This document shows, piece after piece, positions 38,334 through 56,035 of a stretch of 64,000 nt of DNA. This DNA is from a virus, in IMG/VR virus record IMGVR_UViG_3300032288_004702, positions 64,001 to 128,000 of that record; one strand, written 5' to 3'. Both the position numbers and the translations under genes were made by a program. The notes under the pieces are model-generated. The model saw only the letters and a program-made list of their open reading frames with translations. It searched no databases and had not been told where the DNA came from. Positions within the stretch are counted from its first letter, which is position 1. Every line of letters starts with the position of its first letter.

Positions 38334-38653
38334 GTTTGCTCCTTTGTAAGCGGTTGGTAGGGACACCCACACAATACCACCTATGGGACAGACTTCCCAA
38401 ATCGCTTGACACCTTGTGGGGCAAGGGTTTCCGACTTATCTACTCTGTCTGTCTGCCGTGGTGCGCCCGACTTATCTACTCCTGCTGTGGGGTGGTGCGG
38501 TGGGTCTGCGCCGTGCGCCCGACTTATCTACTATCCCCCCGTGCGCCCCTCGCCCACCTCGCCCTCGGGCGTGGAGCCCCGCTGTCTTTGGGGGTCTATT
38601 CGGGCCGGGGCTTCGAGCTACTTATCTACTCTGAAAGATGAAAGGAGACTTAT

Positions 38654-39142
38654 CTACTCTTCTTCGTCTTTGGGGTCTGAGATTCGCCACAGACCTTTCT
38701 TGACCTTGATGTAAAGCGGTGATTCGCTGATGTATTTCAGCGTTGTTTGGTATGAGAAACCAGAAACCTCAACAAGTTGTTCAGTGGTGTATTCCTCGCC
38801 CTTATGTTCGTCTGCCCATGAATCAAACTGGCCGTACTTGTCCTTGCGTCGTTCGGTCTTGATAACTCCAGTATTTACTGCGTTCAGGTGCGAGAGGTAT
38901 GACTTGATAAAGGTTGTTAGTACTTCTTCGCTAACGGAGTAGTAGCGGAGCATTGCTGTCGGGTTCCCATTACACCCTTCTCTTTGCCACTTCTCCATGA
39001 CATACAGCGCACGGATAGTTTCCGCTATGCGCCATCTCTCTGCTTGGTTCGCATACCTGTCTTGTGGCTTCTTGTACTTCTTGTCAAACTCTCCGTACAG
39101 CCGTGCGTTCTCTGCGTGTACGAACTCAATAGTAAAGTTCAT
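38654..39142 (-). CDS. Hypothetical protein, C-terminal winged-helix-like
   Basis: YTTEQLVEVSGFSYQTTLKYI...KVKKGLW. Confidence 0.6.
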   Translation of the reverse strand: MNFTIEFVHAENARLYGEFDKKYKKPQDRYANQAERWRIAETIRALYVMEKWQREGCNGNPTAMLRYYSVSEEVLTTFIKSYLSHLNAVNTGVIKTERRKDKYGQFDSWADEHKGEEYTTEQLVEVSGFSYQTTLKYISESPLYIKVKKGLWRISDPKDEEE

Positions 39143-39510
39143 AACATTTCTCCTATTCCGACTTATCTACTACTCCCCCGCGTGACACTATCACCACTCG
39201 GACAGGCTTCCCAAAGTTGCAAACAAAAACTGAGAATCTGCAAAAAAGAGAAAAATCCTGCTGCCAGTAAGCCCTAGGGCTTGCCTTCCGCCACCGTCAT
39301 TCGGATTTATTTGATAAATCTCCGCCGCCAGCTCGAGCGTCCTTCTGCGAAAAAATCAAAAAATCGTCAGAGATTTAGACAACCAAGAAACCAATACCGC
39401 GTTTCAGCGGGGCTCCACCCCAGGGAAACGGACCGATGAAGAAAGGGGAGTGCTACCGCCCAACCGAACGGCAACACTCCCCGAGTAGATAAGTGAAAGG
39501 GGGGACTTAT

Positions 39511-39720
39511 CTACTCTGACCCGATGACCTCAAAGCGGTCGCCCGCTTCCTCTACAAGCCCGAGCCCGCTTCCGCTATCCCACTGGACGAACACTGTTCC
39601 CCAGTCGTCTACGAAATCCACGGTTCCTTCCTCTCCTGCTTTCAGGAGCGTGTAGGGGTCGGAGCAGTAAATGAGTCTGACTCTCTGCCCGACTAGGTGT
39701 TCGTTTCTTGCCCGTCTCAT
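39511..39720 (-). CDS. DUF4314-like protein
   Basis: GQRVRL...DPY..L..GEEGTVDFVDDWGTVFVQWDSGSGLGLV..GDRF. Confidence 0.8.
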   Translation of the reverse strand: MRRARNEHLVGQRVRLIYCSDPYTLLKAGEEGTVDFVDDWGTVFVQWDSGSGLGLVEEAGDRFEVIGSE

Positions 39721-39873
39721 GCTGGAATCTCACTTTCTGTGTTGGTGGTGATGAGAAGTATGCGAATGTCCAAGAGCAGGTCAGTCATCTCTGCCGATGA
39801 CACGATGTCCCTGCCCGAACAGTGGGCTATGGCTTTGTCCACTAAGGCGACCAGTTCCTCGTCCATGACTTAT

Positions 39874-40566
39874 CTACTCCCCTTTCTTTCGCTTGGGAGC
39901 CTTGTCAAGCATTTCCTTGTAGGCAACCGTCTTGGTGGCGAGTTGCATGTAGCCGACCGTTGCCAGCAGTGCGTCAGGCAACTTTCCGTGCGATTCAGCC
40001 TCGGGGTTCACATTCCCGACTGAACACATCGGTTCTTCGTCAAATACGGGAAGTCCGTGGTCGTCATAGCGGTACATGCTGGTGATAGACCAAACGCATG
40101 TTGCGTTCCAGTCCACGGCGGTCAAGATGATTCCTTCACGGACTGTTGAGAACGGATTCTCCTTGTAGTCCTTCTCAAAGTCACCCCTGTCGTGGTTCTG
40201 TGCTTCCTCGTCAGTCATGTCCTGCTTTGCGTAGCCCTCAACGAGAACCATGATGAAGTCAAACGGACGAATCGGGAGAGCCTTCACGACATCCTCAAAT
40301 GCGTCATAGATGTCCTCTTTGTGAATGAGGGGAATCATGGCAAGGTGGTACGGCTTTGAGAGTGAGAACTCCTGCTGGTAGTCCAAGCATGCGTCATGGT
40401 CGGGATTCGTTTCGTTGCTCTCAACGGCAACGAGAAGCAGAGGGGGACTGTCCTGCATGGGCTCGTCCTTGCACATTTCCGTCTTGGCAAAGACGGCTCG
40501 GTTGAGCAAATCTTCCATGATTTGCTTCATGTCGTGGTCTATGACCTCGTTATCTCGTGGTTTCAT
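39874..40566 (-). CDS. Hypothetical protein
   Basis: 230 aa behind the conserved promoter and RBS GAAAGGGG. Confidence 0.7.
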   Translation of the reverse strand: MKPRDNEVIDHDMKQIMEDLLNRAVFAKTEMCKDEPMQDSPPLLLVAVESNETNPDHDACLDYQQEFSLSKPYHLAMIPLIHKEDIYDAFEDVVKALPIRPFDFIMVLVEGYAKQDMTDEEAQNHDRGDFEKDYKENPFSTVREGIILTAVDWNATCVWSITSMYRYDDHGLPVFDEEPMCSVGNVNPEAESHGKLPDALLATVGYMQLATKTVAYKEMLDKAPKRKKGE

Positions 40567-40686
40567 TGGTTGCCCCTTTCAGGCGGTGTGGTTGGTACTG
40601 GAAGCATACCATGTCAGGTACAGACTTCCCAAAGTTATCTACTGACAGTAGGGGTCGGTACAAGCCCCTACACGCCAGCATGATTC

Positions 40687-40908
40687 CTACTTCTCTCCGA
40701 GCAGGTTGTTTACCGAAACTCCGAGAGCAGTGCTTACGGCGAGCAGTGTTGTCACGCTCGGTGCGAATCTTCCGTTCTCAATACGATTCACCGTCTTTCG
40801 GTCAAGCCCTGCACGGTTGGCAAGTTCCAACTGTGACCAGCCCTTCTCTGACCTGTGAACTCGTACTGATTCTGAGATTTGCTCTGTTGATGTTGCTGAT
40901 GTTCCCAT
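40687..40908 (-). CDS. XRE-family HTH protein
   Basis: GWSQLELANRAGLDRKTVNRIENGRFAPS. Confidence 0.85.
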   Translation of the reverse strand: MGTSATSTEQISESVRVHRSEKGWSQLELANRAGLDRKTVNRIENGRFAPSVTTLLAVSTALGVSVNNLLGEK

Positions 40909-40956
40909 TTGGGATTCCTTTCATTTGGGGGGTTTATGGAGTTATCTACTCCGTTT

Positions 40957-41697
40957 CTAGATGGACGAAATGAATGTGCGTGGCGTTCTCCCTTCTTTCT
41001 TGCAACGGCGAACATAGGCGAGGTGCTTCTTGTATTCCTTCATGCATGTCAGCATGTCGTCATCGCACTGCTCCATGAGATAGTTATTCCACTCGGAATG
41101 GGCTTCCCACCAAGTCTCCAATGCGTCATCGTCTGCGTCCTCTGCTTCTGCCTTGTCAGACAGTTCTCGCAACTCGGGGGTGAGGAAGTTTGGGTCACGC
41201 TCACCAGCCTCAATGACAGTTCCGTTATGAAACACAGACCAGCAAATGAAGGCTCGGGATTCTTCATCCGAGGAAACACCAAAGATGAGGTTCGGATAAA
41301 TCGCAGAAATCTTCTGAATCAGTCCGTCGCAGGGTGACCATGCTGATTCGTACCGTATGGTAATCATGTTTCCAGCAGGTGTCGGGTCGTCTATTTCGGG
41401 TCGGCATGCTCCCCACTTGCTTCCCCAAGTTTCGCAAGCGTCAAGGTAGCCGTCAAAGCCGTCCTTCTCTTTCGTGGCAAACACGCCCATAGTGGTCGTG
41501 ACTTCTTTGCCCTCTGCGTCCTTGTGAGTAGTGGTGATTTCCTTGTGACCCCTCGGGTCAAGTGGAACGAGTTGATTCAGTTCGTACTCGGGGTAGGAGC
41601 GTTCGTTGCTTTCTGCAACCGTTATGTCCTTGACGAACTTGGCGATTTCTCGCTTTGTCCCCATGACTGTCATGTAGTTGTAGCACCAGTTCGGCAT
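40957..41697 (-). CDS. YubB/DUF1281-like (ferredoxin-like fold) protein
   Basis: MPNWCYN...WGSKWG...YESAWSP; true start follows the promoter and RBS. Confidence 0.75.
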   Translation of the reverse strand: MPNWCYNYMTVMGTKREIAKFVKDITVAESNERSYPEYELNQLVPLDPRGHKEITTTHKDAEGKEVTTTMGVFATKEKDGFDGYLDACETWGSKWGACRPEIDDPTPAGNMITIRYESAWSPCDGLIQKISAIYPNLIFGVSSDEESRAFICWSVFHNGTVIEAGERDPNFLTPELRELSDKAEAEDADDDALETWWEAHSEWNNYLMEQCDDDMLTCMKEYKKHLAYVRRCKKEGRTPRTFISSI

Positions 41698-42282
41698 TTG
41701 TCTTTCCCTTTCGGCTTGGTGGCTATTCGTACTGTACCACCAGTCGGACAGACTTACATAACTTCGCTCTTCCACCACCGTCATTGAGTTATCTACTCTC
41801 GTTCGGGTCTGCGGGATTTATCTACCAGCCCCCCGACCTGCGCCTTCCCCCCAACTTATCTACTACCCCCCCGCTCCGCGCCCCCACCGCCCCTCGGGAC
41901 GGAGCCCCGGCTCGGTTGCGCAATGCGGGGCTCCAAGCTGGAACCCAACGAACGAGTGAAAGAAGTTATCTACTCTGCGATGGATGCGTAGATAAGTGAC
42001 ACGCTGGCGAATGAATGTCCAGCACCACGGCCGTACTTGATGAATCGGAGAATCCCACGGATTCCATCGGGCAGGTGCGTGAAGGCTTCGTCCGACCAGC
42101 CGTAGTCATCAAATGGAGAGTTATCTACTGGTTCAGGGGCAAACGAAACGATACGAATCTGAGGCTCGTACTCCCACGCCCAGCGAACATTGCACTCAGC
42201 ACCGACCAGGAGAAGTTCTTTGTGGAAGAACCGATGACGGAAGTACGAGATGATGAGCGAAATGTAGAGAGCCATGAGTTAT

Positions 42283-42555
42283 CTACTTCTCATTCCATTC
42301 GGCATAGACACGAATCGCCGACTTTCGCCTGTCATCGGCAGGCATGTTCTTCACGAACTGTGTAAGCGAGGAAAGAATGTCCAGAATGTCGTCCTCTGTC
42401 ATGTCGTGATTCTCCGACATGGATTCGGCAAGCGTCCCATTGGCGTATTCGTCCCAAATAATCGCCATTGCCTCTACTGCGTTCGTGGACAGCGTGAAGT
42501 AGTTGTCCCACAGCATGTCCATTACTTCTATGCGGTCTTGTTCTGTAATCACCAC
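42283..42555 (-). CDS. Hypothetical protein
   Basis: 90 aa; stop lies inside GTAGATAA. Confidence 0.55.
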   Translation of the reverse strand: MVITEQDRIEVMDMLWDNYFTLSTNAVEAMAIIWDEYANGTLAESMSENHDMTEDDILDILSSLTQFVKNMPADDRRKSAIRVYAEWNEK

Positions 42556-42788
42556 AGAACCTCTTGGTGCTTCTCGGTCGTGACTTCCTGAATCTCGGAT
42601 TCGTCAATGCCGTGCTTTATCGCAATGTGCGCTTCGCTCATGTCCTCGGCGTCCTGAATCTCATCGCCTTCTGCGTAGGCGTAGGCGGTGAATGTCTCCA
42701 CCTTCTCGTTGCGCTTCACGATGACCGTTGTGCGGTACAGCACTGGGTCTTTCATGAATGACCGAACCCTGTCGTTGATGGCTTCCAT
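42549..42788 (-). CDS. Hypothetical protein
   Basis: MEAINDRVR... Confidence 0.5.
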   Translation of the reverse strand: MEAINDRVRSFMKDPVLYRTTVIVKRNEKVETFTAYAYAEGDEIQDAEDMSEAHIAIKHGIDESEIQEVTTEKHQEVLW

Positions 42789-42945
42789 TCTCACCACTGC
42801 TCCTTCTTCCAGTTGCGCTTCTCCCGTGTACGGAGAATCCTATGCCACTTCTTGCAGGAATGCTTGCTTCCACGCCCTTTGACGAAATCGCCACAGCAAC
42901 CCCACGGGCAGGACTTGGCGTTCCTCTGTGAGTACATCATGTTGC

Positions 42946-43134
42946 TCACTTATCTACTCCTTCGCACTGACAGAAATCCGAAACATCGCACTGACACCAG
43001 TCAGCAGGCATTTCGCAATAGAAGCAATACTTCTCATTGTAGGCGTTCTTGTTTGCCGGAATCATGCCACAAGTAGGACACATGGGACGGAACATATCGT
43101 CCAGCATTTCGGAGATGCGCTTCATTTCACCCAT
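42946..43134 (-). CDS. Small Cys-rich protein
   Basis: CPTC, CFYC, CQC. Confidence 0.5.
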   Translation of the reverse strand: MGEMKRISEMLDDMFRPMCPTCGMIPANKNAYNEKYCFYCEMPADWCQCDVSDFCQCEGVDK

Positions 43135-43406
43135 CAGAAATCGTCGTCCTCTTCCTCGTCCTCGTCCCAGTCGTCCTCGTAGTCATCGTCCAACTGCTGG
43201 TCCACGGAGAACCAGCGCATGACCGTCAGCAGAAGGTTGTCGTAGTTGCCCGAGGTTGCTTCGGCGTGGAAGGCTTCCACTTCGTCACGCAGACCATTCT
43301 GCTTCATGATTCGCTGGACACGCCCGAGAATGGAGAAGGCGTTGCCGTCCTCTCCAACGAGGGGAATGTTGATGTGCGGATACTTGGGTGAGGTGATGTT
43401 GCTCAT
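43134..43406 (-). CDS. Conserved phage hypothetical protein
   Basis: LVGEDGNAFSILGRV...ATSGNYDNLL; ATG lies 6 nt after the -10 box (leaderless). Confidence 0.7.
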   Translation of the reverse strand: MSNITSPKYPHINIPLVGEDGNAFSILGRVQRIMKQNGLRDEVEAFHAEATSGNYDNLLLTVMRWFSVDQQLDDDYEDDWDEDEEEDDDF

Positions 43407-43724
43407 GCCCTCATCATACCAGCCGTGGTACAGGCTTCCCAAATCAGCCCTTTCAACCACCGTCAATGTGTTGCGAGTTATCTACTACCCCCCCCAGCGC
43501 GTTCCGATTTCCAAAGATTTCCACAACTCGGATTTATCTACTACACCCCCGACTGCGCCTCGCCCCTGTCCGCAGGGAGCCCCGGCCGTTGCAGGGTCCA
43601 GAATCAGGCGGGGCTCCACCCCCAAACGCCCCCACCTGACTGCCTCGGGGTGGGGACTTATCTACTCTGCTAGTTCTCCCCCCTCGCCCAACCGAAGCGA
43701 GAGGAGAGAGACCTAGTAGATAAG

Positions 43725-44036
43725 TCAGAGCGAGTGCCGACCGCCTCGGGTCTCGTATCGGGAGACCGCCTCGGTGATGTTCTCGCAGTAGTCGCCACTT
43801 CCGAACGACCAGCCATCGGGTCGGTCTATCGCCGTCCATACGGCGAACGGGTGACGGGGGTTGTGGGGCAGGTGGCACAGCACAGTCCACATGGCGTATG
43901 CGTCCACATCGCTCGGGCGCAGAAGCCAGCAAGCGAGAACGGTCACGGCATTGTCCATGCTGGCAGGGGTGACTACCTCTCCCACGCTCAGGGTGCGCAT
44001 GGGATAGGTGTCGGTGGGGGACTTATCTACTCCCAT
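43725..44036 (-). CDS. Hypothetical protein
   Basis: HPFAVW...GDYCENITEA. Confidence 0.5.
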   Translation of the reverse strand: MGVDKSPTDTYPMRTLSVGEVVTPASMDNAVTVLACWLLRPSDVDAYAMWTVLCHLPHNPRHPFAVWTAIDRPDGWSFGSGDYCENITEAVSRYETRGGRHSL

Positions 44037-44038
44037 GT

Positions 44039-44491
44039 TCACGCCCCCTCTCCGTTGAGCCATGCGTCAAACTCTTCATCGGTGAAAGCGGTGATGGTCG
44101 GCGGCGTGGAAAGGACTTCCTGAACAGCGAGAGCGAGAGCCTTCATCACATTCTCGTCAGCGAGCAGGGTCTTGGAGAGTGTCTCCAAGTAGGACGGGTC
44201 GTACTGCTCGGGAACATCGTGGTTCTCTCCGTCATAGTCACCTTCCTCGTTGAGTGCGCCAAGAACGACCACATCGCCCACGAGAGGGCGACCGAACATG
44301 AGGCTTGCGAGAGCGTTCGGTGCGAGTCCGATGAGGAGTCCTTCGTCATTCACATACGCAACAAGGTCATCAGTGCGAACGCAGTCAAGCCAGCCACCAC
44401 AGAGTTCGTTCAGAACGAGGTGACCGCCTTCCTCGGGAACGGTGGTGACTTCCACCTCTCCCGTGGTCTTGATGAGTAGTGCTGTTGCCAT
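44039..44491 (-). CDS. DUF3846-like protein
   Basis: CGGWLD...YVNDEGLLIGLAPN..AS....LVGDVVVLG. Confidence 0.75.
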   Translation of the reverse strand: MATALLIKTTGEVEVTTVPEEGGHLVLNELCGGWLDCVRTDDLVAYVNDEGLLIGLAPNALASLMFGRPLVGDVVVLGALNEEGDYDGENHDVPEQYDPSYLETLSKTLLADENVMKALALAVQEVLSTPPTITAFTDEEFDAWLNGEGA

Positions 44492-44815
44492 TGCTAACCC
44501 CTTTCAGGTTGTGTGTATCGGTGGCGACCACAGAGTACCACCATTAGGACAGGCTTCCCAAACTTATCTACCACTCCCCCGCGTTGCCCTCGCCTTGCGT
44601 GTGGGGTGGAGCCCCGGGGTGGCTGGGCTTCGGGCGGGGCTCCTGCCCCAGCCCTTGCCCCTCGCTCGGACTTATCTACTCTCCCCGAACACGCCTGTTC
44701 CCCCGTGCGCCTTGCGGACACTCGGGGGACAGACGGAGTAGATAAGTGTTGGGGTGGGGGACTTATCTACTCCACTCGGCTCGGGGGCTTGCGCCCCCTT
44801 GCCTTGCGTGTGGGG

Positions 44816-45217
44816 TCAGACCGCCTCGGACTTGGCGGTGGGCTTGACTGCGCCCTTCGCTGGGCGAACCAGCACTCGGACTGACGAGGTGACGGACACG
44901 ACTGCCTTCACGACCTTTGCGGACACCTTGCCTTCCTTCACAGCCCTATCCCATGCGGAAGTGTCCACGGTGGGCTTGGTGACGGTGCGGAACAGCGGTG
45001 CGCTGATGAGTCCACGCAACTTCTCGGTGTCAAACGAACGGCGGTCGCTCGGGCTGACCTTGATGTTGAGTTCGGCATAGTCCAGCGTGTCCACGCCGTG
45101 CTTGGCGTACACAGCCAGCAAGAGTTCACGAGCCTCGTCGTGAGCCTGCTCTGCCTGCTCTCGGGCGGTGAGTGCGTTCAGGAACGCCTCTGTCGCTTCC
45201 AATACTTCCTTCTCCAT
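44816..45217 (-). CDS. Hypothetical protein
   Basis: Follows the conserved promoter and CGAAAGGGG. Confidence 0.7.
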   Translation of the reverse strand: MEKEVLEATEAFLNALTAREQAEQAHDEARELLLAVYAKHGVDTLDYAELNIKVSPSDRRSFDTEKLRGLISAPLFRTVTKPTVDTSAWDRAVKEGKVSAKVVKAVVSVTSSVRVLVRPAKGAVKPTAKSEAV

Positions 45218-45775
45218 TTGGAACCCCTTTCGGTTTGGTTGGTGGAGAACCACACGCCGTGTTGCTTGTGGCTTGGCACAAGCATACACCCCCTCGGACA
45301 GACTTCCCAACTTCGCTTGACACTTATCTACTCCCCCTAGTTCCCCTGCCAGCCAGCCCCACAGGAGTACGGTTATCTACTACGCCCCCGTGTTGCGCCC
45401 ACAGCCCCCCTCGGGGGCGGAGCCCCGCTGGTTTGTCGGTCAAGGCCGGGGCTTCTGCCCAGAACTGCCGTCTAGCCCGAACGGGGGAGTATTAGATAAA
45501 TGGAGATTTATGTTTGGGATTACGAGGGTCGGCTGGCTCGGGTTCGGGAACTGACCTGCGAGGCGAACAGGCTGACTGCCCTTGTGCGCCGTGCCAACGA
45601 GAACACCCGTGCGAGCCTCACTCGTGGCAGTTTCAGAGTTATCTACTCCGACAGTCCTGCCCTTCCCCCGATAGAGAGTAGATAAGTCGTGGAATGGGGA
45701 AAGGGGCTGGCTCACCTTCTTGGCAAGCCAGCCCCTCTCGGGTGAAGTCCTCGGGGGGGGGTGTGAGGAAAGGGG

Positions 45776-46222: not shown

Positions 46223-46430
46223 TTGGTTTCTCTCCTACCGACAGGGTTGGTGATGTCGGCACACGCACAGTACCACTCGTTGGACAGACTTCCCAAAGTT
46301 ATCTACTACTCCCCCGCGTTCGGTTTGCCCGTGTTTGGAGTGGAGCCCCGGCTGTTCGCCGATAGTCGCGGGGCTTCTGCCCCAAAGTCGGGCTGGCGTG
46401 GCGTGGGGGGTTGGTAGATAAGTCGGGCAG

Positions 46431-46462
46431 TTTCCCACTTTCCCACTTTCCCACTTTCCCAC
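46431..46462. repeat. Tandem repeat (TTTCCCAC)x4
   Basis: Read directly from the sequence. Confidence 0.9.
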
Positions 46463-46577
46463 ATTTGGACTTATCTACTCTCCCCTGCGCTCGCCTCAAT
46501 GGAGTAGATAAGTAGATAAATGACGAAGCCCCCAACAGTCGGGGGGTGACTGTCGGGGGCTTGCGCCGTGCTGGGGG

Positions 46578-47045: not shown

Positions 47046-47392
47046 GTTGTTCCCCTTTCGGAATGGTTGGTAGGACACCGTCAGCGTACCACGCTGGGGA
47101 CAGGCTTCCCAAACTTATCTACTCGGTTCTTCCACCACCGTCATTCATTTGAGAGAGTGGGCAGAGACAGCCCTTGGGAAATCCCGACTTATCTACCACG
47201 CCCCCGTGTGGTGGCTCGCCCCAGCCCCAGCCCCCGTTCGGGGTCGGAGCCCCGGCGTCTCCAAGCGAAGCGGGGCTCCTGCCCCAACTTTGGGTCAGAC
47301 GAACAGGTGTTCGGTCTGTGGGGTCGGGGACTTATCTACTCCCCCAATGGAAAGGGGGGCAGGGGGAGTAGATAAGACCCGAACGCCTAGCC

Positions 47393-48135: not shown

Positions 48136-48589
48136 TGTTGTCCCTTTCGTTTCGGTTGGTAGTGGACACCAGAACTGTACCACGCACGGCACAGGCTTCC
48201 CAACTTCGCAAGATGTGGAGAGTTATCTACTACCCCCCCGTGTTCTCGGCACAGCCAGCCAGCCCGAGTTGTGGCAAGAAGCCCCGCTTCGCTACCCGAA
48301 CCGGCCGGGGCTCCTGCCCTAAACTGCCGTGGGCAGGTGAACGGGGGAGTCGTAGATAAGTTGGCAGTTCAGCCCGATTCTCTTTGTCCCGATTCGGTGG
48401 CGGTTGGCGGTGGCGCACCACACAGCCACGCACACGCCCGACAAGCCTCTCGCATGAGACTCACGCAAGCGCACACGCACCCCGACAGCCTCGCCATGAG
48501 AGTAGATAAGTGTCGGGGGCAGGCGCACGAACACGGACTCACCCACCCTGCCCGTGCGCTAGGCAGAGTAGATAAGTCCGTGTCTTGGG

Positions 48590-48859: not shown

Positions 48860-48925
48860 GCCATGAGTGTACCACTAGGGGTACAGACTTCCGAAAGTTA
48901 TCTACTCCCCTAGCGGGGGACTTAT

Positions 48926-49324
48926 CTACTCGGATTCGTCTGCCACCAACGGGCGCACCACGCTTGCGCTACCCGTAGGTGCGTCATGGTGGGACAGCGA
49001 GAACTCAACTCGGTCAGCGAACACTTCGTAGCGGAGAATCCATTCGCTATTGACGGTGATTCCACGCACGAACTCGGCAACCGTGGTGGCACGGAAGATA
49101 GCGTCAAAGTCTCCGTTCCAGAGACGGACAGCCTCAACTCGGAACCATTCGGACTGTGCGAGGATTCCCTTCACGCACTCGCCAAAGAACTCCAACTCGG
49201 AATCCCAACAGTCTCCGAAACAGTCGGAAGTCGGCAGGAACTCACCCGTCGTTTCGTCAAGTACGGAACAGGTACAGGTATTCGTCAGTTCGCCGTAGGC
49301 GATTCGTGTCTCGGTGGTGGTCAT
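48926..49324 (-). CDS. Hypothetical protein
   Basis: CTC..CFGDCW..SHHDAPTG; follows the conserved promoter. Confidence 0.7.
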   Translation of the reverse strand: MTTTETRIAYGELTNTCTCSVLDETTGEFLPTSDCFGDCWDSELEFFGECVKGILAQSEWFRVEAVRLWNGDFDAIFRATTVAEFVRGITVNSEWILRYEVFADRVEFSLSHHDAPTGSASVVRPLVADESE

Positions 49325-49583
49325 GTCCAAGCCTTTCGGTTGTGTTGGTGGGACAGCCACAGAGTACCACGCACGGGACAGACTTCCCATTCTCGGACTT
49401 ATCTACTATCCCCCCGTGTTGCGCCTGCCCCCACTTGGGGTGGGAGCCCCGGCCCTGCCGAGCGCAGCGGGGCTTCTCCCCCGAAGGCAACGCCTCGGCG
49501 CACGGGGGAATGGTAGATAACTCCCATCAAAGTTTCTTTCTCGGCGTTTGACATTCGGACACGCAACGCACCTTCTACTAAGT

Positions 49584-49784
49584 GTGAAACGCTACTACTT
49601 CCGACATTGTGGTTCTCTCCACCCCGTAGACCGTGACATGGTGTTCGGCAAAGACGGCAAGCCAAAGGACTACCACCCACTCGTGGGTTGCCCTGTGTGC
49701 CGAAAGATTTGCTGGCTGTCCCATGTGACGGAGATAGGGGAAGACGACACGCCCGACACGGAGACAGACGGCGAGACAGAGTAG
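49584..49784 (+). CDS. Small Zn-ribbon-like protein
   Basis: HCG...CPVC; stop lies inside GTAGATAA. Confidence 0.45.
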   Translation: MKRYYFRHCGSLHPVDRDMVFGKDGKPKDYHPLVGCPVCRKICWLSHVTEIGEDDTPDTETDGETE

Positions 49785-49852
49785 ATAACTTCGGGCGCAG
49801 ACTTATCTACTCCCATTCACGCCACGAACGAGAGTAGATAAGTCGGGCGAGG

Positions 49853-50155
49853 CTATTCGCTCTCGCAACGCCCACAGAGGTAGTCAGCACCCCAAGCGTC
49901 ACCAATGTAAGTGCCGTGCTTACAGTAGAGGCTCTTCTCGTACTCACGCTCACGCTCAATGAGAGCCTCGCAACGCTCGTAGTACGCCTCGTAGTGCTTC
50001 TCGCAACGGGGGAACACTACGAACGCACCGTTCCCACGCCAGCGCACGGGGTGGGTCAAGCGGTACTCCACCACGCCTTCGCACGGGCTGTCCTCGTGGT
50101 GGTGGTCAAGGCAGTCCTCGTGCGTGAGTTCGGGAGTCTCGTGGTCAATGCTCAT
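49853..50155 (-). CDS. Cys/His-rich hypothetical protein
   Basis: 100 aa ORF. Confidence 0.55.
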   Translation of the reverse strand: MSIDHETPELTHEDCLDHHHEDSPCEGVVEYRLTHPVRWRGNGAFVVFPRCEKHYEAYYERCEALIEREREYEKSLYCKHGTYIGDAWGADYLCGRCESE

Positions 50156-50157
50156 GG

Positions 50158-50337
50158 TTATTCTTCCCCTTCTTCGGTGTCGTCTTCTTCGTACTCGTCT
50201 TCTTCGTAGAAGTCAGAGTCGTAGTCAGGCTCGTCTGCGTAGTAATCGGCGTAGCGGTCTTCGTGCGCCTTTATGTACGGTGCTTCCTCGTTCCAATGCT
50301 CGTAATCAGACGGGCTGGAATGGCGTTCGTTCGGCAT
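50158..50337 (-). CDS. 59-aa highly acidic protein
   Basis: Hand translation MPNERHSSPSDYEHWNEEAPY...DEPDYDSDFYEEDEYEEDDTEEGEE. Confidence 0.55.
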   Translation of the reverse strand: MPNERHSSPSDYEHWNEEAPYIKAHEDRYADYYADEPDYDSDFYEEDEYEEDDTEEGEE

Positions 50338-50354
50338 GACTTATCTACTCCCTT

Positions 50355-50843
50355 TCAGACTTTCTTCGCACACACTGGACCGATACCACGCTCAATGCTC
50401 GTGGGGTCGGTGAGTTCCGCACCGCACACGACACACACGCCGTGTTGTGCGCCCAACTCAACCGCTTCTGCGAGGGTAATGCGGTGTTCGGGCGTGAGGC
50501 TGTAAATAGCACCACGCTCGTAAGAGAAACGCTCGGACTTGCGCTCTGCGTCAGGCACGAAACGCTCGGCGTAGAAACGACCTGCCTTGCTCTGCTTCAC
50601 ACGGAACACGCCCTCGTCATTGCGATAGATACCGCACTCGGTGACGGGGTTCGCTTCGCTCTTGACACGCTGTGCGTCACGCTCACGGTCACGCTCAATG
50701 CCACGCAGAACGGCGAGTATCTGCTTCTCGGACAGAACGCCCTTGCGCTCAAACTGCTGGAACAGGCTCGCATAGAACTCGTTGCGAGTGTGGTTCGCTC
50801 GCAAGTAGTCATACGCCTTGTCAAAGTCGGCTGGTGTGGTCAT
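50355..50843 (-). CDS. DUF6011-like Zn-binding protein
   Basis: CVVCGAELTDPTSIERGIGPVCAKK. Confidence 0.75.
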   Translation of the reverse strand: MTTPADFDKAYDYLRANHTRNEFYASLFQQFERKGVLSEKQILAVLRGIERDRERDAQRVKSEANPVTECGIYRNDEGVFRVKQSKAGRFYAERFVPDAERKSERFSYERGAIYSLTPEHRITLAEAVELGAQHGVCVVCGAELTDPTSIERGIGPVCAKKV

Positions 50844-51291
50844 GGTGTCCCCTTTCGTTGGTACGCCCAAACTGTACCACGCACGGGACAGGCTTCCGTG
50901 AGTTATCTACTCTGCTTGTGGGTCGTTCGGCGGTCGGAGTTATCTACTCCGTCAGGTGGGGGCTGGGGCTGTGTCAGGGCGTGGGGCTGTGCCGTAGGGC
51001 GGTCGCCGTCAGGCGCACGACTTATCTACCACGCCCCCGTTCACCGCCACACCCCGTGTGGGGGTGTGGGGGCGGAGCCCCGCAGGGTACGGCGCAGCCG
51101 GGGCTCCCGCCCCGAACTCGGCGCACCGAGCACACGGGGGATTAGTAGATAACTCTCATCAAACAGCCCTAGCCAAACACGCCACAGACACACTCTGCCT
51201 AATCGGGAAATAAATGTCCCATTCCGACACTTAGAGCACCTTCTAGTAAATGAGACCTTGTATTAGGCGTGAGACAGAAAGAGAGAAATAA

Positions 51292-51528
51292 ATGATTCGT
51301 GACCGATACGACCAAGAGACCCATGTCGGAGAAGTCTTGTATGACGAGATTCGTGACGGGTTCATTTGCGCCTACTGCCTAGACGACTTCACCCATTCGC
51401 AACTACACGCAACCTACGGTGGCAACATCCTGCCGATTACCGTGCGTCTATCACGCAAGTTTCTCAAAGCATTACGCAACGAGCCGTGCCTAATCTGCGA
51501 CCTGCCGTGTTCACGATTCGTGGACTAA
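51292..51528 (+). CDS. Small Cys-rich protein
   Basis: CAYC...CLIC; purine-rich RBS. Confidence 0.5.
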   Translation: MIRDRYDQETHVGEVLYDEIRDGFICAYCLDDFTHSQLHATYGGNILPITVRLSRKFLKALRNEPCLICDLPCSRFVD

Positions 51529-51591
51529 CGCCGAGACTTATCTACCCCCAATGGAACGCACCCAAAGAGAGTAGATAAGTCTGCGAGAGCG

Positions 51592-52116
51592 TCAGCAGAT
51601 AGAGAAACCGCCTGATTCTGCGAGGAAGTCTGCGAACTCACGGACATTCTCTTCGGAGAAGGGGTAGGACATCCCGAACGACTCCCGTGTGCCAATGCCG
51701 TTACAGCCATTACACCAGCCGTGTGTGCGACCCGTGAGAATCTGAATCTCCGTCGGGAGTTCTTTCGTGGGTTGCCCCATGTCCTCGCCAATAGCGTCGG
51801 TGCGGATTCCCGTTGCGCCACAGAGGTCACAGTCCTCACGAGGAAGGCTCGCAAGGTACTCACGGTGCTTCTGTTCGTATTGAGTGGTGCGACCAGACGA
51901 GAGTTCCTCACGGAGAATCTCTGCGAGAGCGAGAGCCATGACTCCGTCAAGACCTGCGCCGTCGTTGTAGTGACCACTCTCTGCGAGCGATTCGCCAATG
52001 ACTTCTTCTGCCACTCCACAGCAGTAGTCCCACAGGGGTCGCCACCACCACACATTGTTGCGGAAGTACTCGCCCCTCTTGCTGGTCGGGTTCTTCCCGT
52101 ACACATCCATTCCCAT
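51592..52116 (-). CDS. Conserved hypothetical protein with a DnaJ-type Zn finger insert
   Basis: MGMDVYG..YFRNNVWWWRPLW..CDLCGATG..CNGCNGIG..SGGFSIC. Confidence 0.7.
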   Translation of the reverse strand: MGMDVYGKNPTSKRGEYFRNNVWWWRPLWDYCCGVAEEVIGESLAESGHYNDGAGLDGVMALALAEILREELSSGRTTQYEQKHREYLASLPREDCDLCGATGIRTDAIGEDMGQPTKELPTEIQILTGRTHGWCNGCNGIGTRESFGMSYPFSEENVREFADFLAESGGFSIC

Positions 52117-52539
52117 TGTCTTGCCCCTTTCGGCTTGTTGGACACACAGAGAGTACCACCAACGGGTCAGGCTTCCGAAAGTTATCTACCACTCCCCCGA
52201 CACACAGCATGCTGTTGTTTGGGGCAGGAGCCCCGCTGGGGCAAGGCATTGTGCCGGGGCTCCTCAGTTCGGCTCGCCTCCTCGCGCGCGATGCCGTGAG
52301 ACTTATCTACTCTCGGTCATCGCACCCGTGGGGGCAGGCTCCCGAAATGGGAACCTCTCCGCACTCCCAGCATTGGACACGGTTCGCCCAGTCCCTCTCA
52401 CGAGCCTGCTCTGCGAGGTCGGCAGCGATGACCTGCTGACAGGGCTGGCAACGAATCGCCTGCCCATCGCACGAGCAGTCATCGGGAATCGGGAACTCTC
52501 CCGAATCATCGGGAATCGGGGTGTTGTGAATCGCTCGCA

Positions 52540-53019
52540 TTAGAACGCTCCTTCTTTGTCTGCGAGGAACTCCTCGTAGCGTTCCTCATCTGTCTTGTGC
52601 TCCTCGGACACCCACTCGTGACCGTTGGAGCAACGCCAACCGACATCAACGCCGTCACGAACAATGGGCTCAACTTCGCCGTGGCATGGAACGATGTTCC
52701 ACAGGTCTGACGGCTGGTCAGGCTCGGGATTACCCGAAGGGACTTCCACCTGCCAGTCGCAGAGAGGAGTCCAACCGATAGAGGCACAACGGAACGCTTG
52801 TCCATCTACTTCCACGACATCTCCGACAGAGAGTGCTGTGTGTGTGCGGTCTTCCCACAGCAGGGGCTCAATGATGTCCCACAGCGAACCCTGGTAGCGG
52901 TTGGTGTCCGCAAACACTCGGTCGCAAATAGCGAGTGCTGAGTCATGCGTGTCAAGTACGAACTCAACGAATGAGTCGCCTCCGAATGCGCTCCATGTGA
53001 CTTTGATGTTCTTCTTCAT
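52540..53019 (-). CDS. YodL-like domain protein
   Basis: RTHTALSVGDVVEVDGQAFRCASIGW. Confidence 0.6.
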   Translation of the reverse strand: MKKNIKVTWSAFGGDSFVEFVLDTHDSALAICDRVFADTNRYQGSLWDIIEPLLWEDRTHTALSVGDVVEVDGQAFRCASIGWTPLCDWQVEVPSGNPEPDQPSDLWNIVPCHGEVEPIVRDGVDVGWRCSNGHEWVSEEHKTDEERYEEFLADKEGAF

Positions 53020-53301
53020 TGGTGTTTCCCCTTTCGGGCAGGTGGCTCCTGCCCACCAGAAATGTACCACTAAGAGGACAGGCTTCCGAAAGTTATCTAC
53101 TACATCCCCGTGTGGTGTGCTGTCGCGCGGGAGAAAGCCCCGCGTTGCTCGGCGAGATAGCCGGGGCTTCCGCCCAGAACTGGCGCACGGCCGTGCTGTG
53201 AACGGGGGAGTCGTAGATAAGTCGCACACTTGGGAAGGCTGTACCTATTGAGGTATGCTTCGGGTGGCCATTCGGCCGTATCCAACGAAAGGGGATAGCA
53301 A

Positions 53302-53904
53302 ATGAAGGTATTGGAAGTCAGCGCACGAAAGGGTGGCGTCGGCACAACGACTGTGGCCTGCGCTCTCGCACTCAAACTCGCAGAGCACAACCGAGACAAG
53401 GTTCTGCTCATTGACACTTCGGAGAACACCGAAGCGTTCTCTGTTCTTGGCGTCGCAAACCCCATTGGGCGAAACTCCATCTCGTTCGGTGAGCACAACC
53501 TGACAGTCGTGAACATTCCACTCGCAGAAGTGAACAACGGCCTGTCTGTCTCGCAATACGAGTTCGTCGTCATTGACGCTGGCAAGAGTGAAGTAGATAA
53601 GTCATACTTCGGCCTGACTCCGTTCCGTGTGGCCGTCGTGCGTAACTCGTACCTCTCACTTCGGGCCGAGTCCATAACACGAGCGAGCAAAGACGCAGTC
53701 GTCTCCATTCACGACGACAAGAATGTCCTGACTGTCGGTGACACCGAGAATGTGCTTCGTGGGTCAGCCGTTACCGTTCTCCCTCTTGACGAGGCCATCT
53801 CTCGTGCCATTGACGCAGGCCTGTTCTCGTCTCGTGCGAACCTGTGGAGCAAGACGGCAGACGAGTTCGTTCGTCGTCACGAACTCTCCACGGCCTCGGT
53901 CTAG
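53302..53904 (+). CDS. ParA/MinD-family P-loop protein
   Basis: Deviant Walker A KGGVGTTT, VLLID, VVIDAG. Confidence 0.75.
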   Translation: MKVLEVSARKGGVGTTTVACALALKLAEHNRDKVLLIDTSENTEAFSVLGVANPIGRNSISFGEHNLTVVNIPLAEVNNGLSVSQYEFVVIDAGKSEVDKSYFGLTPFRVAVVRNSYLSLRAESITRASKDAVVSIHDDKNVLTVGDTENVLRGSAVTVLPLDEAISRAIDAGLFSSRANLWSKTADEFVRRHELSTASV

Positions 53905-54127
53905 TCCGAAGGCCCACCTACTCAGAGTAGATAACTCTCGGTGGGTGGGCCGAAGGGCAGAGAAAGCCCCGCTACGCTCCCCCGAAGCTGCCGGGGCTCC
54001 TGCCCGAAAGTCGGGGGCGACATCCAGCGCACGGGGGAGTGGTAGATAAGTTCGGGATTTGGGAAGGCTGTCCGTGCTGTGGTACATTCGTGTCGCCAGC
54101 AACCACCAACCGAAAGGCAGGCACACA

Positions 54128-54556
54128 ATGTCCGAAGTCACCCCACTCCACCCGCTGACCACATCGGTCGAGCGCAACTACCCGACCGTCAAGCCCGAAA
54201 CGCTCTTGGAGCGTGGCGAGTTCCTGTCTGCCATTCTCGGTTCGGCATGGGAGTCATGGGACTGGTGGAAGGCTGTGGACTACACCGCACCGTTTGACTG
54301 GGACAACCACCCCAAGACGAACGACCGCCCATTCCTGACCATCTTGGCAGACGACCCCGATGGTGACGAGGGCGAGACCGTGAAGGTCTCTCTCACCGTG
54401 GCAGACCTCTACGAGGCATACATCTCGGTCTGCTCTGCCAACAGCGAGGACTTGGGCTACTACGAGAACTACGGAATCCACGACCTTGACTTGGACGCCA
54501 TTGAGGGCGACCACATCATTCAGTTCGCCGTGTTCGGAACGCTCATCTACGGCTGA
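54128..54556 (+). CDS. Hypothetical protein
   Basis: Ends in DAIEGDHIIQFAVFGTLIYG; follows the conserved promoter. Confidence 0.7.
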   Translation: MSEVTPLHPLTTSVERNYPTVKPETLLERGEFLSAILGSAWESWDWWKAVDYTAPFDWDNHPKTNDRPFLTILADDPDGDEGETVKVSLTVADLYEAYISVCSANSEDLGYYENYGIHDLDLDAIEGDHIIQFAVFGTLIYG

Positions 54557-54662
54557 CCGTAGGGGAGTAGATAAGTCCCCTATCGGAGTAGATAAGTTTC
54601 GGAAGTCTGTCCTACCCGTGGTACATTATGGGTAGCCACCAACCAACCGAAAGGAACGGCAC

Positions 54663-54926
54663 ATGAAACAGCGCAAAGTGTTCACACACGAGGAAGTCAT
54701 CGCACTTCTCTGCTCGCCTAGCCCGAAGGCAGAGGCAGTCCTGCTCTATCTGACGACAGTCAAGCAGGCAACGACAGGCGAGATAGCGAAGGCTCTCTGC
54801 TGGGACAAGAGCAACACGGGTCGCAGGCTGGAAGCACTTGCCGAGGACGGATTCGTAGAGTGCGTAGACGACAGCCACCACGAGGGCAACAGGGGTCGCC
54901 CTGCCCGACTGTGGAGAGTCCTCTAA
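54663..54926 (+). CDS. Winged-helix (TrmB/ArsR-like) protein
   Basis: ATTGEIAKALCWDKSNTGRRLEALAEDGFV...GRPARLW. Confidence 0.75.
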   Translation: MKQRKVFTHEEVIALLCSPSPKAEAVLLYLTTVKQATTGEIAKALCWDKSNTGRRLEALAEDGFVECVDDSHHEGNRGRPARLWRVL

Positions 54927-55145
54927 CGAGACCCCCGACTTATCTACTCCCCATGCGCCGACCGTGGTGGAGTAGATAAGTCACCCACGGGGCGAGTTCG
55001 GGGCGGGAGCCCCGGCTGGACAGCCGAGCGCAGCGGGGCTTCTTCCCGGAACTCGGCCAGAGCACACGGGGGGGTCGTAGATAAGTTGGGAAGTCTGTCC
55101 CGACCGTGGTACACTTCATGCAAGCCAACTGAAAGGGGCAACGAC

Positions 55146-55487
55146 ATGAGCAAGACGCTCGCCGATTACTGGGACGATGTGGAGGACGCGGTGCAGGACG
55201 CACACCTCATCGCGTGGGACACCTGCCACAAGATTTACCTCGCGATGGACGAGGCCGAGGCCAACTGGTTCCGCGAGAACTACGCGCCCGATGTGGTGAC
55301 GGGAACGCCCGAGGAACTGCTCGCCACTCTCCGCGAGTGGTACGAGAACTCCTGTGGTCTCCGCTTCATTCAGGCCGTGACGCGTGACGAGGAAGACCCG
55401 AACAGGGGATTCACCAACCTGATTCCCCAGGGAGCCGACTGGGAGGACGAGGAAGACGAAGACGACTACGAGGACGAGGAGGAGTAG
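55146..55487 (+). CDS. Acidic hypothetical protein
   Basis: WDTCHKIY..SCGLRFI; acidic tail; stop lies inside GTAGATAA. Confidence 0.7.
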   Translation: MSKTLADYWDDVEDAVQDAHLIAWDTCHKIYLAMDEAEANWFRENYAPDVVTGTPEELLATLREWYENSCGLRFIQAVTRDEEDPNRGFTNLIPQGADWEDEEDEDDYEDEEE

Positions 55488-55494
55488 ATAACTC

Positions 55495-55833
55495 ATGGCG
55501 ACCGAAACAACACCCGATGAGTTCGCCCTCATGGACTCACGCAACGCGTTCGCGTGGAACCTGCTAACCGAACTGCGCGAGCGTTCCACGAAGCCCGAGG
55601 TCGTAGAGGCCTCTGAGATTCTGCTCGCGAACATCGCCGACCCGACCGATTACGCGGTCATCGTGTGGCCGAACGAGGACGACCTCCGTTCGTTTGACGA
55701 GACCGAATGGGGGACGGACGAGAACGGTTATTGGAGCGACTGCTACGAGACCCCTCTCGTGTGGTGCGACCGACAGGACGAGCACTCGCTCATCGTCTGG
55801 TACTCAGCGAAGTACGGCCAGACAGGGGAGTAG
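55495..55833 (+). CDS. Acidic hypothetical protein
   Basis: 112 aa; stop lies inside GTAGATAA. Confidence 0.6.
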   Translation: MATETTPDEFALMDSRNAFAWNLLTELRERSTKPEVVEASEILLANIADPTDYAVIVWPNEDDLRSFDETEWGTDENGYWSDCYETPLVWCDRQDEHSLIVWYSAKYGQTGE

Positions 55834-56035
55834 ATAAGCACCCCCCGCTTATCTACTCCCCTTTGGTATACCCCGAACCAGAGTAGATAAGTGGCAAGAA
55901 GCCCCGCCTCTTTACGGGCAATGGAGCGAAGCGGGGCTTACCCCCGTGTAGGTCATTGCACGACGGGGGAGTAGTAGATAAGATTTCGCAATCGGCACAA
56001 GCCGAGCTGCCACACAGACTCAAGGAGAGAAGAAC

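Follow-up and report, generated by a model that had tools for sequence, protein, structure and literature searches.

What kind of site is the short palindrome that recurs along the gene array of this uncultured large phage? The window, i.e. the whole 64-kb stretch of DNA that was analysed, belongs to a phage genome that is complete at 156 kb. A search of it with the pattern AGCCCCG-N(10-40)-CGGGGCT returned exactly 15 elements, all within 38575-55938, as compared with 0.00 in the shuffled window; AGCCCCGC occurs 22 times versus 1.87 expected. These counts bear out a preliminary description of the locus, which had noted an inner palindrome with a conserved one-base asymmetry in both orientations. 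The inner palindrome is a pair of head-to-head copies of AGCCCCG, placed in front of the early-gene cassettes of a clade of uncultured large phages. The positions originally given for it mark outer arms; one has to go 43-59 bp inward to reach the inner arms. Listed without strand, the palindromes are:

38575-38612: inner palindrome 1; plus strand AGCCCCGC..GCCGGGGCT, C/C at base 8, spacer 24
41903-41932: inner palindrome 2; reverse polarity, G/G, spacer 16
43578-43615: inner palindrome 3; reverse polarity, G/G, spacer 24
44610-44641: inner palindrome 4; G/G variant AGCCCCGGG..GGCGGGGCT, spacer 18
45421-45453: inner palindrome 5; C/C, spacer 19, inside a two-armed element
46344-46375: inner palindrome 6; G/G, spacer 18
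47248-47277: inner palindrome 7; G/G, spacer 16
48280-48312: inner palindrome 8; C/C, spacer 19
49445-49474: inner palindrome 9; G/G, spacer 16, inside a two-armed element
51076-51105: inner palindrome 10; C/C, spacer 16
52229-52261: inner palindrome 11; C/C, spacer 19
53136-53168: inner palindrome 12; C/C, spacer 19
53965-53998: inner palindrome 13; C/C, spacer 20, upstream of the rightward promoter 54062
55008-55040: inner palindrome 14; G/G, spacer 19, upstream of the rightward promoter 55089
55900-55938: inner palindrome 15; symmetric C/G, 8-bp arms, spacer 25

Seven copies (38575, 45421, 48280, 51076, 52229, 53136 and 53965) read AGCCCCGC..GCCGGGGCT, and six (41903, 43578, 46344, 47248, 49445 and 55008) are the exact reverse complement, AGCCCCGGC..GCGGGGCT. 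The seven forward copies originally counted thus stand, while six of the seven reverse copies are exact and the remaining one, at 44610, with G/G at base 8 and reading AGCCCCGGG, is only a variant of that class. The one symmetric copy that had been described is the inner palindrome at 55900 (AGCCCCGC..GCGGGGCT). Within the window, orientation is independent of gene direction, as had been stated: polarity is 6:6 within the leftward gene block, and both kinds occur within the rightward block. Oriented copies share a weak 5′ spacer consensus, TGCGCTCGG, so that the asymmetry exceeds one base. Whether it would be lost in a larger homolog set had been posed as a test; clade-wide it persists, though weaker (51% exact, 80% unpaired). 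Of 80 copies that form an ascertainment-free set, 41 were C/C at base 8, and Watson-Crick pairs at this base were found in 16 versus 30 expected (P about 0.0008). No inward pair follows the heptamers in 88 of 105 copies, and usually just one arm per pair reads AGCCCCGC. As a rule, the typical pair has AGCCCCGC in one arm and AGCCCCGG in the other, i.e. non-identical half-sites and an inverted repeat that ends at 7 bp. The single extrahelical base proposed earlier fits this phage and its relative G001, where a bulge geometry with C8 pairing to G9′ across a bulged C holds in 19 of 21 arms. It does not fit the arm of the relative G002, CCCGGGGCT, so that what holds in general is an unpaired base 8. 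At orthologous sites polarity has mostly been inherited, and at some it has changed; palindromes 8 (48280) and 10 (51076), for instance, are of the base-8 class opposite to that of their G001 orthologs.

The heptamers themselves are fixed. Their seven upper pairs never vary in 39 oriented copies from four genomes, and across 16 lineages we counted 92 perfect pairs versus about five real one-arm variants, with no compensated stem variant of the family. The same two heptamers occur in related uncultured phages and are invariant although the cassette proteins have diverged to 35-55% identity. Covariation was to be distinguished from fixed sequence: the sequence is fixed, and no covariation particular to single copies was seen in the flanks, which gave 466 pairs versus 464.7 on within-locus shuffles. 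Spacers measure 16-20 nt in 72 copies and 24-27 nt in 26 (together 98 of 105), and none was shorter than 16 nt in a search that allowed 0-60. Spacer length is near-uniform in several lineages and spacer sequence is unconstrained; that of palindrome 6 (46344) is identical at 15 of 18 positions to the orthologous G002 site. Gene order is largely collinear among the relatives, and copies of the element occupy orthologous positions in genomes with 10-50% protein difference. Some cassettes have moved together with their element: that at 53965-54556 lies in G001 between the orthologs of 48590 and 48926, and at rearranged junctions in G002 the element goes with the downstream gene.

The palindrome is the centre of a composite element, in which it is preceded by an outer arm (operator-like TTATCTAC plus a CCCCCG box) and followed by the mirrored outer arm. 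Complete two-armed composite elements, again without strand, lie at:

45371-45502: holds palindrome 5
46296-46425
48220-48362: decayed -35-like box after the right arm
49396-49524: holds palindrome 9
51019-51156
53090-53224: where cassette transcription diverges

The outer-to-inner distance had been put at mostly 43-48 bp (range 43-59), and 14 of 20 distances indeed measure 43-48 bp. Most copies have 25-31 nt between the stem and the CCCCCG box; in smaller groups this distance is 36-41, 49 or 68-69 nt. Outer arms are lineage-specific; the core palindrome is clade-wide. All elements are intergenic and lie upstream of nearly every cassette promoter; each promoter is followed by a leader of ~35 nt, an RBS (CGAAAGGGG) and ATG. 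The promoters are:

38375-63512, no strand given: 18 cassette promoters, TTTGGGAAGYCTGTCC-N7-GTGGTAC
Leftward promoters, first G: 38397, 40629, 43439, 44558, 46293, 47109, 48200, 48892, 49387, 50897, 52176, 53087, 63512
Rightward promoters, start: 54062, 54601, 55089, 61074, 61957

From palindrome to conserved promoter box the distance is 48-190 nt rather than fixed, and direct contact with RNA polymerase is therefore unlikely. Palindrome 12 is flanked by divergent cassette promoters, 53087 (minus) and ~53229 (plus); in G001, a palindrome (32909) is likewise retained between divergent promoters. An orphan ParA-like gene sits at the divergence point.

Outside its zone the word is missing. With both strands searched and single copies counted, AGCCCCG scored 0 versus 10.5 expected in the genome's other 115 kb, and it alone did so among 105 permutations of the same composition (median 11). 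The heptamer is limited to one zone in seven relatives, among them G001, G003, G005, G006, G008 and G009. Single half-sites were also found:

35137-35143, minus strand: single half-site; plus strand reads GCGGGGCTCCCACCCC
39408-39414, minus strand: single half-site; plus strand reads GCGGGGCTCCACCCC
61004-61010, minus strand: single half-site 63 nt upstream of rightward promoter 61074; orthologous site kept in G001 and G003
61886-61892, minus strand: single half-site 64 nt upstream of rightward promoter 61957; kept in G001 and G003
63538-63544, plus strand: single half-site 25 nt upstream of leftward promoter 63512; kept in G003

In three genomes GCGGGGCTCC is retained at orthologous places, and the surrounding flanks do not align. 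The invariant arms, the conserved single half-sites, the purging of single copies and the usual restriction of AGCCCCGC to one arm all favour two non-identical half-sites, one of the readings originally offered.

The array resembles the promoter-early stem-loop (PeSL) cassettes of T4-like phages (Arbiol et al., 2010, PMC2839356; Comeau et al., 2014, PMC4122927). In both, composite motifs are repeated among small ORFan genes, a G/C-tract stem-loop is combined with an early promoter, SD and start codon, and the motif moves with the gene it precedes and bounds indels and rearrangements with no dedicated recombinase. In contrast to PeSLs, whose stem-loop lies within or next to the -35/-10 boxes, the palindrome here is 48-190 nt upstream; one heptamer is invariant across lineages at 35-55% protein identity, the loop never falls below 16 nt, single arms are conserved, the word is kept out of all other parts of the genome, and a second, lineage-specific pair of outer arms encloses the palindrome. 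PeSL G/C-tract stem-loops reduce reporter expression as strongly as rrnB T1 (PMC2839356).

We favour, at somewhat less than an even chance, the reading that the inner palindrome is a two-part double-stranded DNA site for a putative sequence-specific protein and the core of a cassette boundary module. Its arms are copies of one invariant word, (GG)AGCCCCG, that face each other head to head, 16-20 bp apart or, in some lineages, 24-27 bp apart. The module lies on the 5′ side of early-gene cassettes, travels with the downstream cassette, and has a PeSL-like layout of stem-loop, promoter, RBS and ORFan. We infer that the binder, which may be a phage early protein, a virion protein or a host factor, would act on the duplex, and that the site may insulate or regulate the cassette promoter jointly with the lineage-specific, operator-like outer arms. 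The sites between divergent promoters (53136, and 32909 in G001) count for a protein site, because nothing there needs terminating. On the other side, a spacer that ranges over 16-20 bp in one genome would turn the half-sites relative to each other by up to about 140 degrees, and a rigid dimer would not easily accommodate this; Pfam and PHROGs gave no DNA-binding annotation among the cassette proteins examined; the promoter distance varies (48-190 nt); and PeSL stem-loops terminate in vivo (PMC2839356).

The last point leads to a less likely contender, namely that the palindrome is an RNA hairpin that causes attenuation or termination of transcripts reading through from the cassette upstream, as the stem-loop half of a PeSL-type cassette, and that its sequence was kept through common descent and inter-cassette recombination alone. 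Its intergenic position upstream of nearly all cassette promoters, its GC-rich stem, the match to the PeSL layout and the presence of few other terminators within the array all fit; RNA from either strand carries identical stems, and independence of polarity is therefore compatible with an RNA-level role. However, none of the 15 copies passed a consensus intrinsic-terminator scan (loop of 3-8 nt, then a T-run). Direct reading shows flanks of the form 5′ TTYGGGG..CCCCRAA 3′ on each strand, with YCYNCCC on the 3′ side and no U-tract directly after the stem. A short terminator-type loop (about 3-8 nt) was not seen, the spacer being at least 16 nt in all 105 copies, and the 7-bp stem is never extended; terminator-like hairpins that pass the T-run criterion lie separately, upstream of two elements (39482-39445 and 46562-46526). 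Stability is ordinary, with Z-scores for single-stranded DNA folding of -0.6 to -3.1 and most copies no better than composition-matched shuffles. Further points against a hairpin are the lack of compensatory change in > 90 copies despite deep divergence, the lack of G.U excess on the sense strand (44 versus 65), retention between divergent promoters, and the conservation of single arms together with the purging of single heptamers from late regions on both strands. T4 RegB acts on GGAG in early mRNAs, and the palindrome could also be an RNA-level tag on early transcripts, read by a ribonuclease or RNA-binding protein, of phage or host origin, that times mRNA decay or processing; we regard this as improbable. 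If the element times early-mRNA decay, late mRNAs must lack the word, and confinement to the early zone, purging from late regions and the invariant stem sequence agree with this; read-through transcripts would carry the element in their 3′ parts. But the elements lie upstream of promoters, so that they are transcribed by read-through alone, one stands between divergent promoters, AGCCCCG and its complement are both absent from late-region DNA whichever strand is sense, and no nuclease candidate for such a tag was found.

Little speaks for the view that a MITE- or REP-like selfish element, a miniature inverted repeat, colonised the early region in either direction. The many copies, the two polarities and a composite palindrome that measures about 130 bp and has inverted arms at its ends would suit this view, but the positions are orthologous in genomes with 10-50% protein difference, spacers differ between copies, no target duplications are visible around the elements, the core is shared across the clade but the outer arms differ by lineage, and no transposase was found. 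Least credible is a folded single-strand recombination or transposition site for cassette exchange (attC, or an IS200/IS605 or REP end), with the extrahelical base setting strand choice. Such a site would account for the arrayed short cassettes, between which lie nested inverted repeats that vary at their centre, for the asymmetry conserved at the stem top, and for whole cassettes having moved with their element between positions in relatives. Like attC, the repeats are nested and imperfect, with an unpaired base in the stem region; like REP/BIME with RAYT and IS200/IS605 ends, they are short, GC-rich, imperfect and intergenic, and a fixed asymmetry defines their two orientations. Yet the complete 156-kb genome had no match to PF00589 (tyrosine recombinase; positive controls matched in 14/14 genomes) or PF01797 (Y1 HUH transposase, TnpA/RAYT; controls matched in six genomes), and no serine recombinase or IntI. 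The attC core sites R″ (RYYYAAC) and R′ (GTTRRRY) are absent, the arms being AGCCCCG/CGGGGCT and the outer arms TTATCTAC..GTAGATAA, and no GTAG-type guide or cleavage motif was seen at the elements. Instead of promoterless cassettes in one orientation, there are 18 cassette promoters in the window, one per cassette, and polarity is mixed 7:7. Whereas attC conserves structure, sequence is conserved here, with no covariation and weak single-stranded stability; the spacer is 16-27 nt as compared with the short loop of REP/BIME and IS200/IS605, positions are orthologous and stable with gene order largely collinear, and the bulge model fails in G002. The attC- or IS200/IS605-like hairpin of the preliminary description is thus not supported.

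To return to the protein site, the SAS/ESAS of Cluster K are repeated short asymmetric words that go with transcription units. Cluster A mycobacteriophages have their stoperators, which are likewise many short asymmetric words associated with transcription units and differing by lineage (PMC9283540). The outer-arm word GTAGATAA and its substitutes also differ by lineage, but the likeness is limited to the outer arms; the inner palindrome is a clade-wide inverted pair. By analogy with chromosomes, the AGCCCCG pairs might be sites of a putative protein that marks the ~40-kb early region, probably the first-entering part, as a distinct domain, although we consider this unlikely. The chromosomal organisers matS/MatP and parS/ParB use words of 13-16 bp without a long spacer. 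In common with them, a short word occurs many times in one part of the replicon and is missing elsewhere, here in palindromic arrangement; in contrast, the sites here coincide with promoter-upstream regions of the phage early region. If true, such marking would amount to a viral version of the matS/MatP or parS/ParB type, in which the non-identical half-sites would give each site polarity and the ParA-like gene at the divergence point would possibly be involved, and it may serve the timed shut-off, protection or positioning of the early region.

The phage genome is complete, measures 156,276 bp and carries terminal repeats; the window covers its bases 64001-128000. A pattern search of the window for AGCCCCG-N(10-40)-CGGGGCT returned 15 inner palindromes, all within 38575-55938, and none in shuffled sequence. 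Seven of the 15 read AGCCCCGC..GCCGGGGCT and six the exact reverse complement; palindrome 44610 is a G/G variant, and palindrome 55900 is symmetric. Remeasurement bore out the preliminary description in its coordinates, its counts and its spacing from outer to inner arm, which is 43-59 bp and mostly 43-48. A fixed total length from outer arm to outer arm was dropped, the summed distances being 84-101 bp without clear phasing. When the window was searched with a covariance model built from 39 copies (the 15 window copies and 24 from three relatives), exactly the same 15 palindromes were recovered, the next match scoring 11.5 bits (E 0.22). No Rfam family matched at 30-64 kb at E values up to 1.

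Searching IMG/VR by pattern and MAG contigs by protein placed the window phage in a clade of uncultured phages; the inner palindrome is real and extends to this clade. Two relatives' genomes, G001 (158 kb) and G003 (145 kb, in inverted orientation), are collinear with the window, and a third, G002, is a 58-kb fragment partly rearranged relative to it; protein identities of these three to the window phage are 50-95%. Cassette proteins are 35-80% identical in the more distant members L014, L020, L024, L035, L055, L066, L085, L093, L109 and L152-154. The pair AGCCCCG..CGGGGCT is kept in all these relatives, whereas outer arms and frequent words vary by lineage; the palindrome is therefore clade-wide and the outer operator lineage-specific. 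The phage collection gave no DNA or protein match for the window phage, and hence neither a cultured relative nor any annotation that could be drawn on. Host assignment through MAG contigs carrying a conserved AAA protein was rejected, as the taxa were inconsistent (Actinomycetota, Gammaproteobacteria, Planctomycetota, Verrucomicrobiota, Acidimicrobiia); palindromes are absent from the Acidimicrobiia loci with this protein.

The palindromes lie in an array of small genes, mostly ORFans, which run leftward up to ∼53.1 kb and rightward beyond. Annotated members include DUF3846, DUF6011, DUF932, an Api92-like domain, an AAA_5 ATPase, an SNF2 helicase, a ParA-like gene and an H1-like protein. Eighteen window promoters share the layout TTTGGGAAGYCTGTCC-N7-GTGGTAC, a ∼35-nt leader, CGAAAGGGG and ATG. 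By eye, these promoters have no conserved -12 GC or CGTC box, and a sigma-54 or ECF reading was rejected; no sigma70_r2 gene was found in the genome. Going upstream from a cassette promoter, one meets an operator-like arm, CGGGGGAGTnGTAGATAAGT, then the inner palindrome and, in six elements, a mirrored outer arm beyond its far side. The word GTAGATAA has 119 genome copies, 117 of them in the 27-68 kb zone (window coordinates); from 27681 to 63655 and beyond it is co-oriented with transcription, switching strand at ∼53.1 kb. Outside the zone two copies were seen versus 2.1 expected, i.e. it is enriched in the zone without being avoided elsewhere. Its places are taken by GTAGGTAAGT and CGGCAGGTAG in G001 and G003; the outer-arm or frequent word is TTATCGGAAGC in L035, and L014 and L055 also use other words. 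GTAGATAA looks like a lineage-specific, stoperator-like operator. Several further features were seen in the array.

Further features of the array (window coordinates)
39445-39482 (-) and 46526-46562 (-): long hairpins that pass the T-run criterion of the terminator scan (5 T in 8) and look like ordinary terminators; each directly follows a stop codon, the first lying upstream of a single half-site and the second upstream of palindrome 6
40585-40631 (-): region of promoter 40629, which has no canonical palindrome; a different 7-bp hairpin, GTAGGGG..CCCCTAC, lies 33 nt upstream, and a flanking GGGGCT lies at a similar distance from the matching promoters of G001 (GTGGGGGCT, 36 nt) and G003 (35 nt)
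45501-45686 (+): opposite-strand ORF of 61 codons, conserved at 79% over 52 aa in G001 and at 62% in G002, with no cassette-type promoter in front; its ATG adjoins the right outer arm of palindrome 5, whose GGGGGAG could serve it as SD
46432-46461: three tandem copies of TTTCCCAC in a short run that separates the right arm of palindrome 6 from the operator word that follows; the run's start looks like a decayed -35 box belonging to a back-to-back promoter
53302-53904 (+): ParA/MinD-like P-loop protein, encoded by the gene that opens the rightward block where the array diverges; a partner gene was not recognized
54940-54985: example of the operator-word inverted pairs (ACTTATCTACTCC..GGAGTAGATAAGT) that fold into hairpins of their own close to the 3′ ends of some units and are a palindrome class separate from the inner palindrome
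56036-56398 (+): 120-aa lysine/alanine-rich protein built of KKAAAKK-type 15-bp repeats, with a weak, below cut-off match to histone H1-like HC2 (E 3.6e-9); it may be a DNA-coating protein

On whether the palindrome is a covarying structure or a fixed sequence, a check proposed at the outset, the evidence favours fixed sequence. The seven upper stem pairs are unvarying in 39/39 copies, and 16 lineages hold 92 perfect pairs and ∼5 true one-arm variants, with no compensated stem variant belonging to the family. Outside the heptamers, 466 flank pairs were observed versus 464.7 ± 12.1 with partners shuffled within the locus; flank complementarity is explained by the consensus of each lineage. The 39-copy count does show a modest pairing excess (5/500 shuffles), which results from a lineage-level co-change in G002, GG/CC to AA/TT, as would also be expected of a palindromic protein site. 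There is no excess of sense-strand G.U pairs (44 versus 65). Folding energies of the 15 cores in single-stranded form are -10 to -19 kcal/mol, with Z-scores of just -0.6 to -3.1 versus composition-matched shuffles, and two of the minimum-energy folds do not use the heptamer stem.

The asymmetry at base 8, the first base inward of the heptamer, was scored in 80 unique copies that had not been retrieved by a pattern fixing this base.

Base 8 in 80 unique copies
C/C (G/G on the other strand): 41 copies
Watson-Crick: 16 copies
C.A / T.G: 10 copies
G.A / T.C: 7 copies
other: 6 copies

Watson-Crick pairs are thus seen 16 times versus 30 expected if the arms were independent (P about 0.0008), and 88 of 105 copies show no inward extension of the inverted repeat at all. 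The asymmetry described as conserved in the window therefore survives in the larger homolog set, though only in the form of a tendency: it is exact in 51% of copies, and base 8 is unpaired in 80%. Near-absolute asymmetry is limited to the window phage (14/15) and G002 (6/7). The position-9′ G needed by a 'bulged C' model occurs in 19 of 21 arms of the window phage and G001, whereas the G002 arm reads CCCGGGGCT. When copies are oriented by base 8, a weak spacer 5′ consensus, TGCGCTCGG, emerges (0.2-0.4 bit per position, about one third of copies). Polarity in the window is indeed independent of gene direction: the leftward block holds six copies of each polarity, and the rightward block a mixture. 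In three close relatives the AGCCCCGC arm is more often promoter-distal; read in the sense direction, their 24 copies comprise 17 C-first, five G-first and two T-first. Orthologous sites mostly keep their polarity, and their spacers align (e.g. 15/19, 12/16, 13/18, 15/18). Compared with G001, sites 48280, 51076 and 53136 have another base-8 class, as do 38575 and 45421 compared with G002; in these orthologs the spacers have diverged too far to separate loop inversion from replacement. The ortholog of window 46344 at L112:400-431, from a G002-lineage relative, has perfect 9-bp arms (AGCCCCGGC..GCCGGGGCT) and is one case of lost asymmetry by conversion of the site.

The heptamer itself is confined to one zone. 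AGCCCCG has 39 copies in the early zone (27000-68000, window coordinates) and none on either strand of the remaining 115 kb, versus 10.5 expected. Among 105 same-composition permutations it is both the commonest within the zone and the sole word with zero copies outside (median 11). This confinement is common to seven relatives, including the following.

Heptamer copies in relatives' genomes and contigs
G001: 38 copies, all in 10.6-47.1 kb of 158 kb
G003: 17 copies, all near the two contig ends
G005: 18 copies, 0.8-18 kb of 104 kb
G006: 56 copies, 10-42 kb of 90 kb
G008: 32 copies, 2.3-33 kb of 46.6 kb
G009: 39 copies, 0.4-17.1 kb of 38.8 kb

Single half-sites, GCGGGGCTCC, lie upstream of promoters at 61004, 61886, 63538 and, just past the window end, 64834; they are kept at orthologous places in G001 and G003, where the flanks are unalignable. 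The spacer is bimodal (72 of 105 copies at 16-20 nt, 26 at 24-27 nt, seven longer) and never shorter than 16 nt, in a search permitting 0-60. Within lineages it is near-uniform: 17-18 nt in G002, 17 in L055, 16-17 in L014, 24 in L154 and 24-27 in L024. The element is retained between divergent promoters (53136 and G001 32909), and the whole composite stays with its downstream promoter and gene across rearrangements (the G002 counterparts of window 46344 and 47248 are 46290 and 49846, respectively). The cassette 53965-54556 is found elsewhere in G001, inverted.

The best-supported mechanism, which we advance tentatively and at somewhat less than even odds, is a putative two-part protein site in duplex DNA whose halves are not identical and which lies where early cassettes have their 5′ boundary. 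A predicted protein would read the invariant AGCCCCG word as duplex DNA; conserved half-sites, zone confinement, the bounded spacer, retention between divergent promoters and travel with the downstream cassette are counted towards this. Two non-identical half-sites had been one of the alternatives of the preliminary description, and this alternative fits, the half-sites being conserved singly and base 8 mostly unpaired. Pfam and PHROGs searches of 30 cassette proteins gave no candidate binder of the word. The main rival, an RNA attenuator, is less likely and could coexist with reading of the site as DNA. For plain terminators the loops are long, and none of the 15 palindromes passes the terminator scan (loop 3-8 nt, then a T-run). 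Furthermore, 5′ TTYGGGG..CCCCRAA 3′ surrounds the element on both strands, which puts the T-rich side 5′ of the stem, and separate terminator-like hairpins that pass the scan lie upstream of elements (39482-39445 and 46562-46526). The suggested likeness to integron attC sites or IS200/IS605 ends is not supported: neither a tyrosine recombinase, a serine recombinase nor a Y1 HUH transposase was found in the complete genome, polarity is mixed, every cassette has its own promoter and gene order is largely conserved.

The closest known system to the putative protein site is the promoter-early stem-loop (PeSL) cassettes of T4-like phages, in which a G/C-tract stem-loop, an early promoter and an SD precede ORFans that move unit-wise, and whose stem-loop was shown to terminate (PMC2839356, PMC4122927). 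The layout here is that of PeSL. In contrast to PeSL, the palindrome here lies 48-190 nt upstream of the promoter, its word is invariant despite deep divergence and exclusive to one zone, the spacer is both long and bounded, conservation extends to single arms, and a second, lineage-specific arm pair encloses the palindrome.

If a protein does read the word, it would be a conserved regulator or organizer of the early ('host take-over / anti-defence') region, shared by an entire clade of large uncultured phages that is not represented by a cultured member in the collection of phages searched. The heptamer pair provides a simple sequence tag by which early regions and the boundaries of their cassettes can be located in this clade's metagenomic contigs, and the ORFan cassettes, with their exchange and control, thereby become open to direct test. 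A PeSL-like layout is also shown to exist outside the T4-like phages, in a form whose 'stem-loop' behaves like a fixed DNA word and not like a structure.
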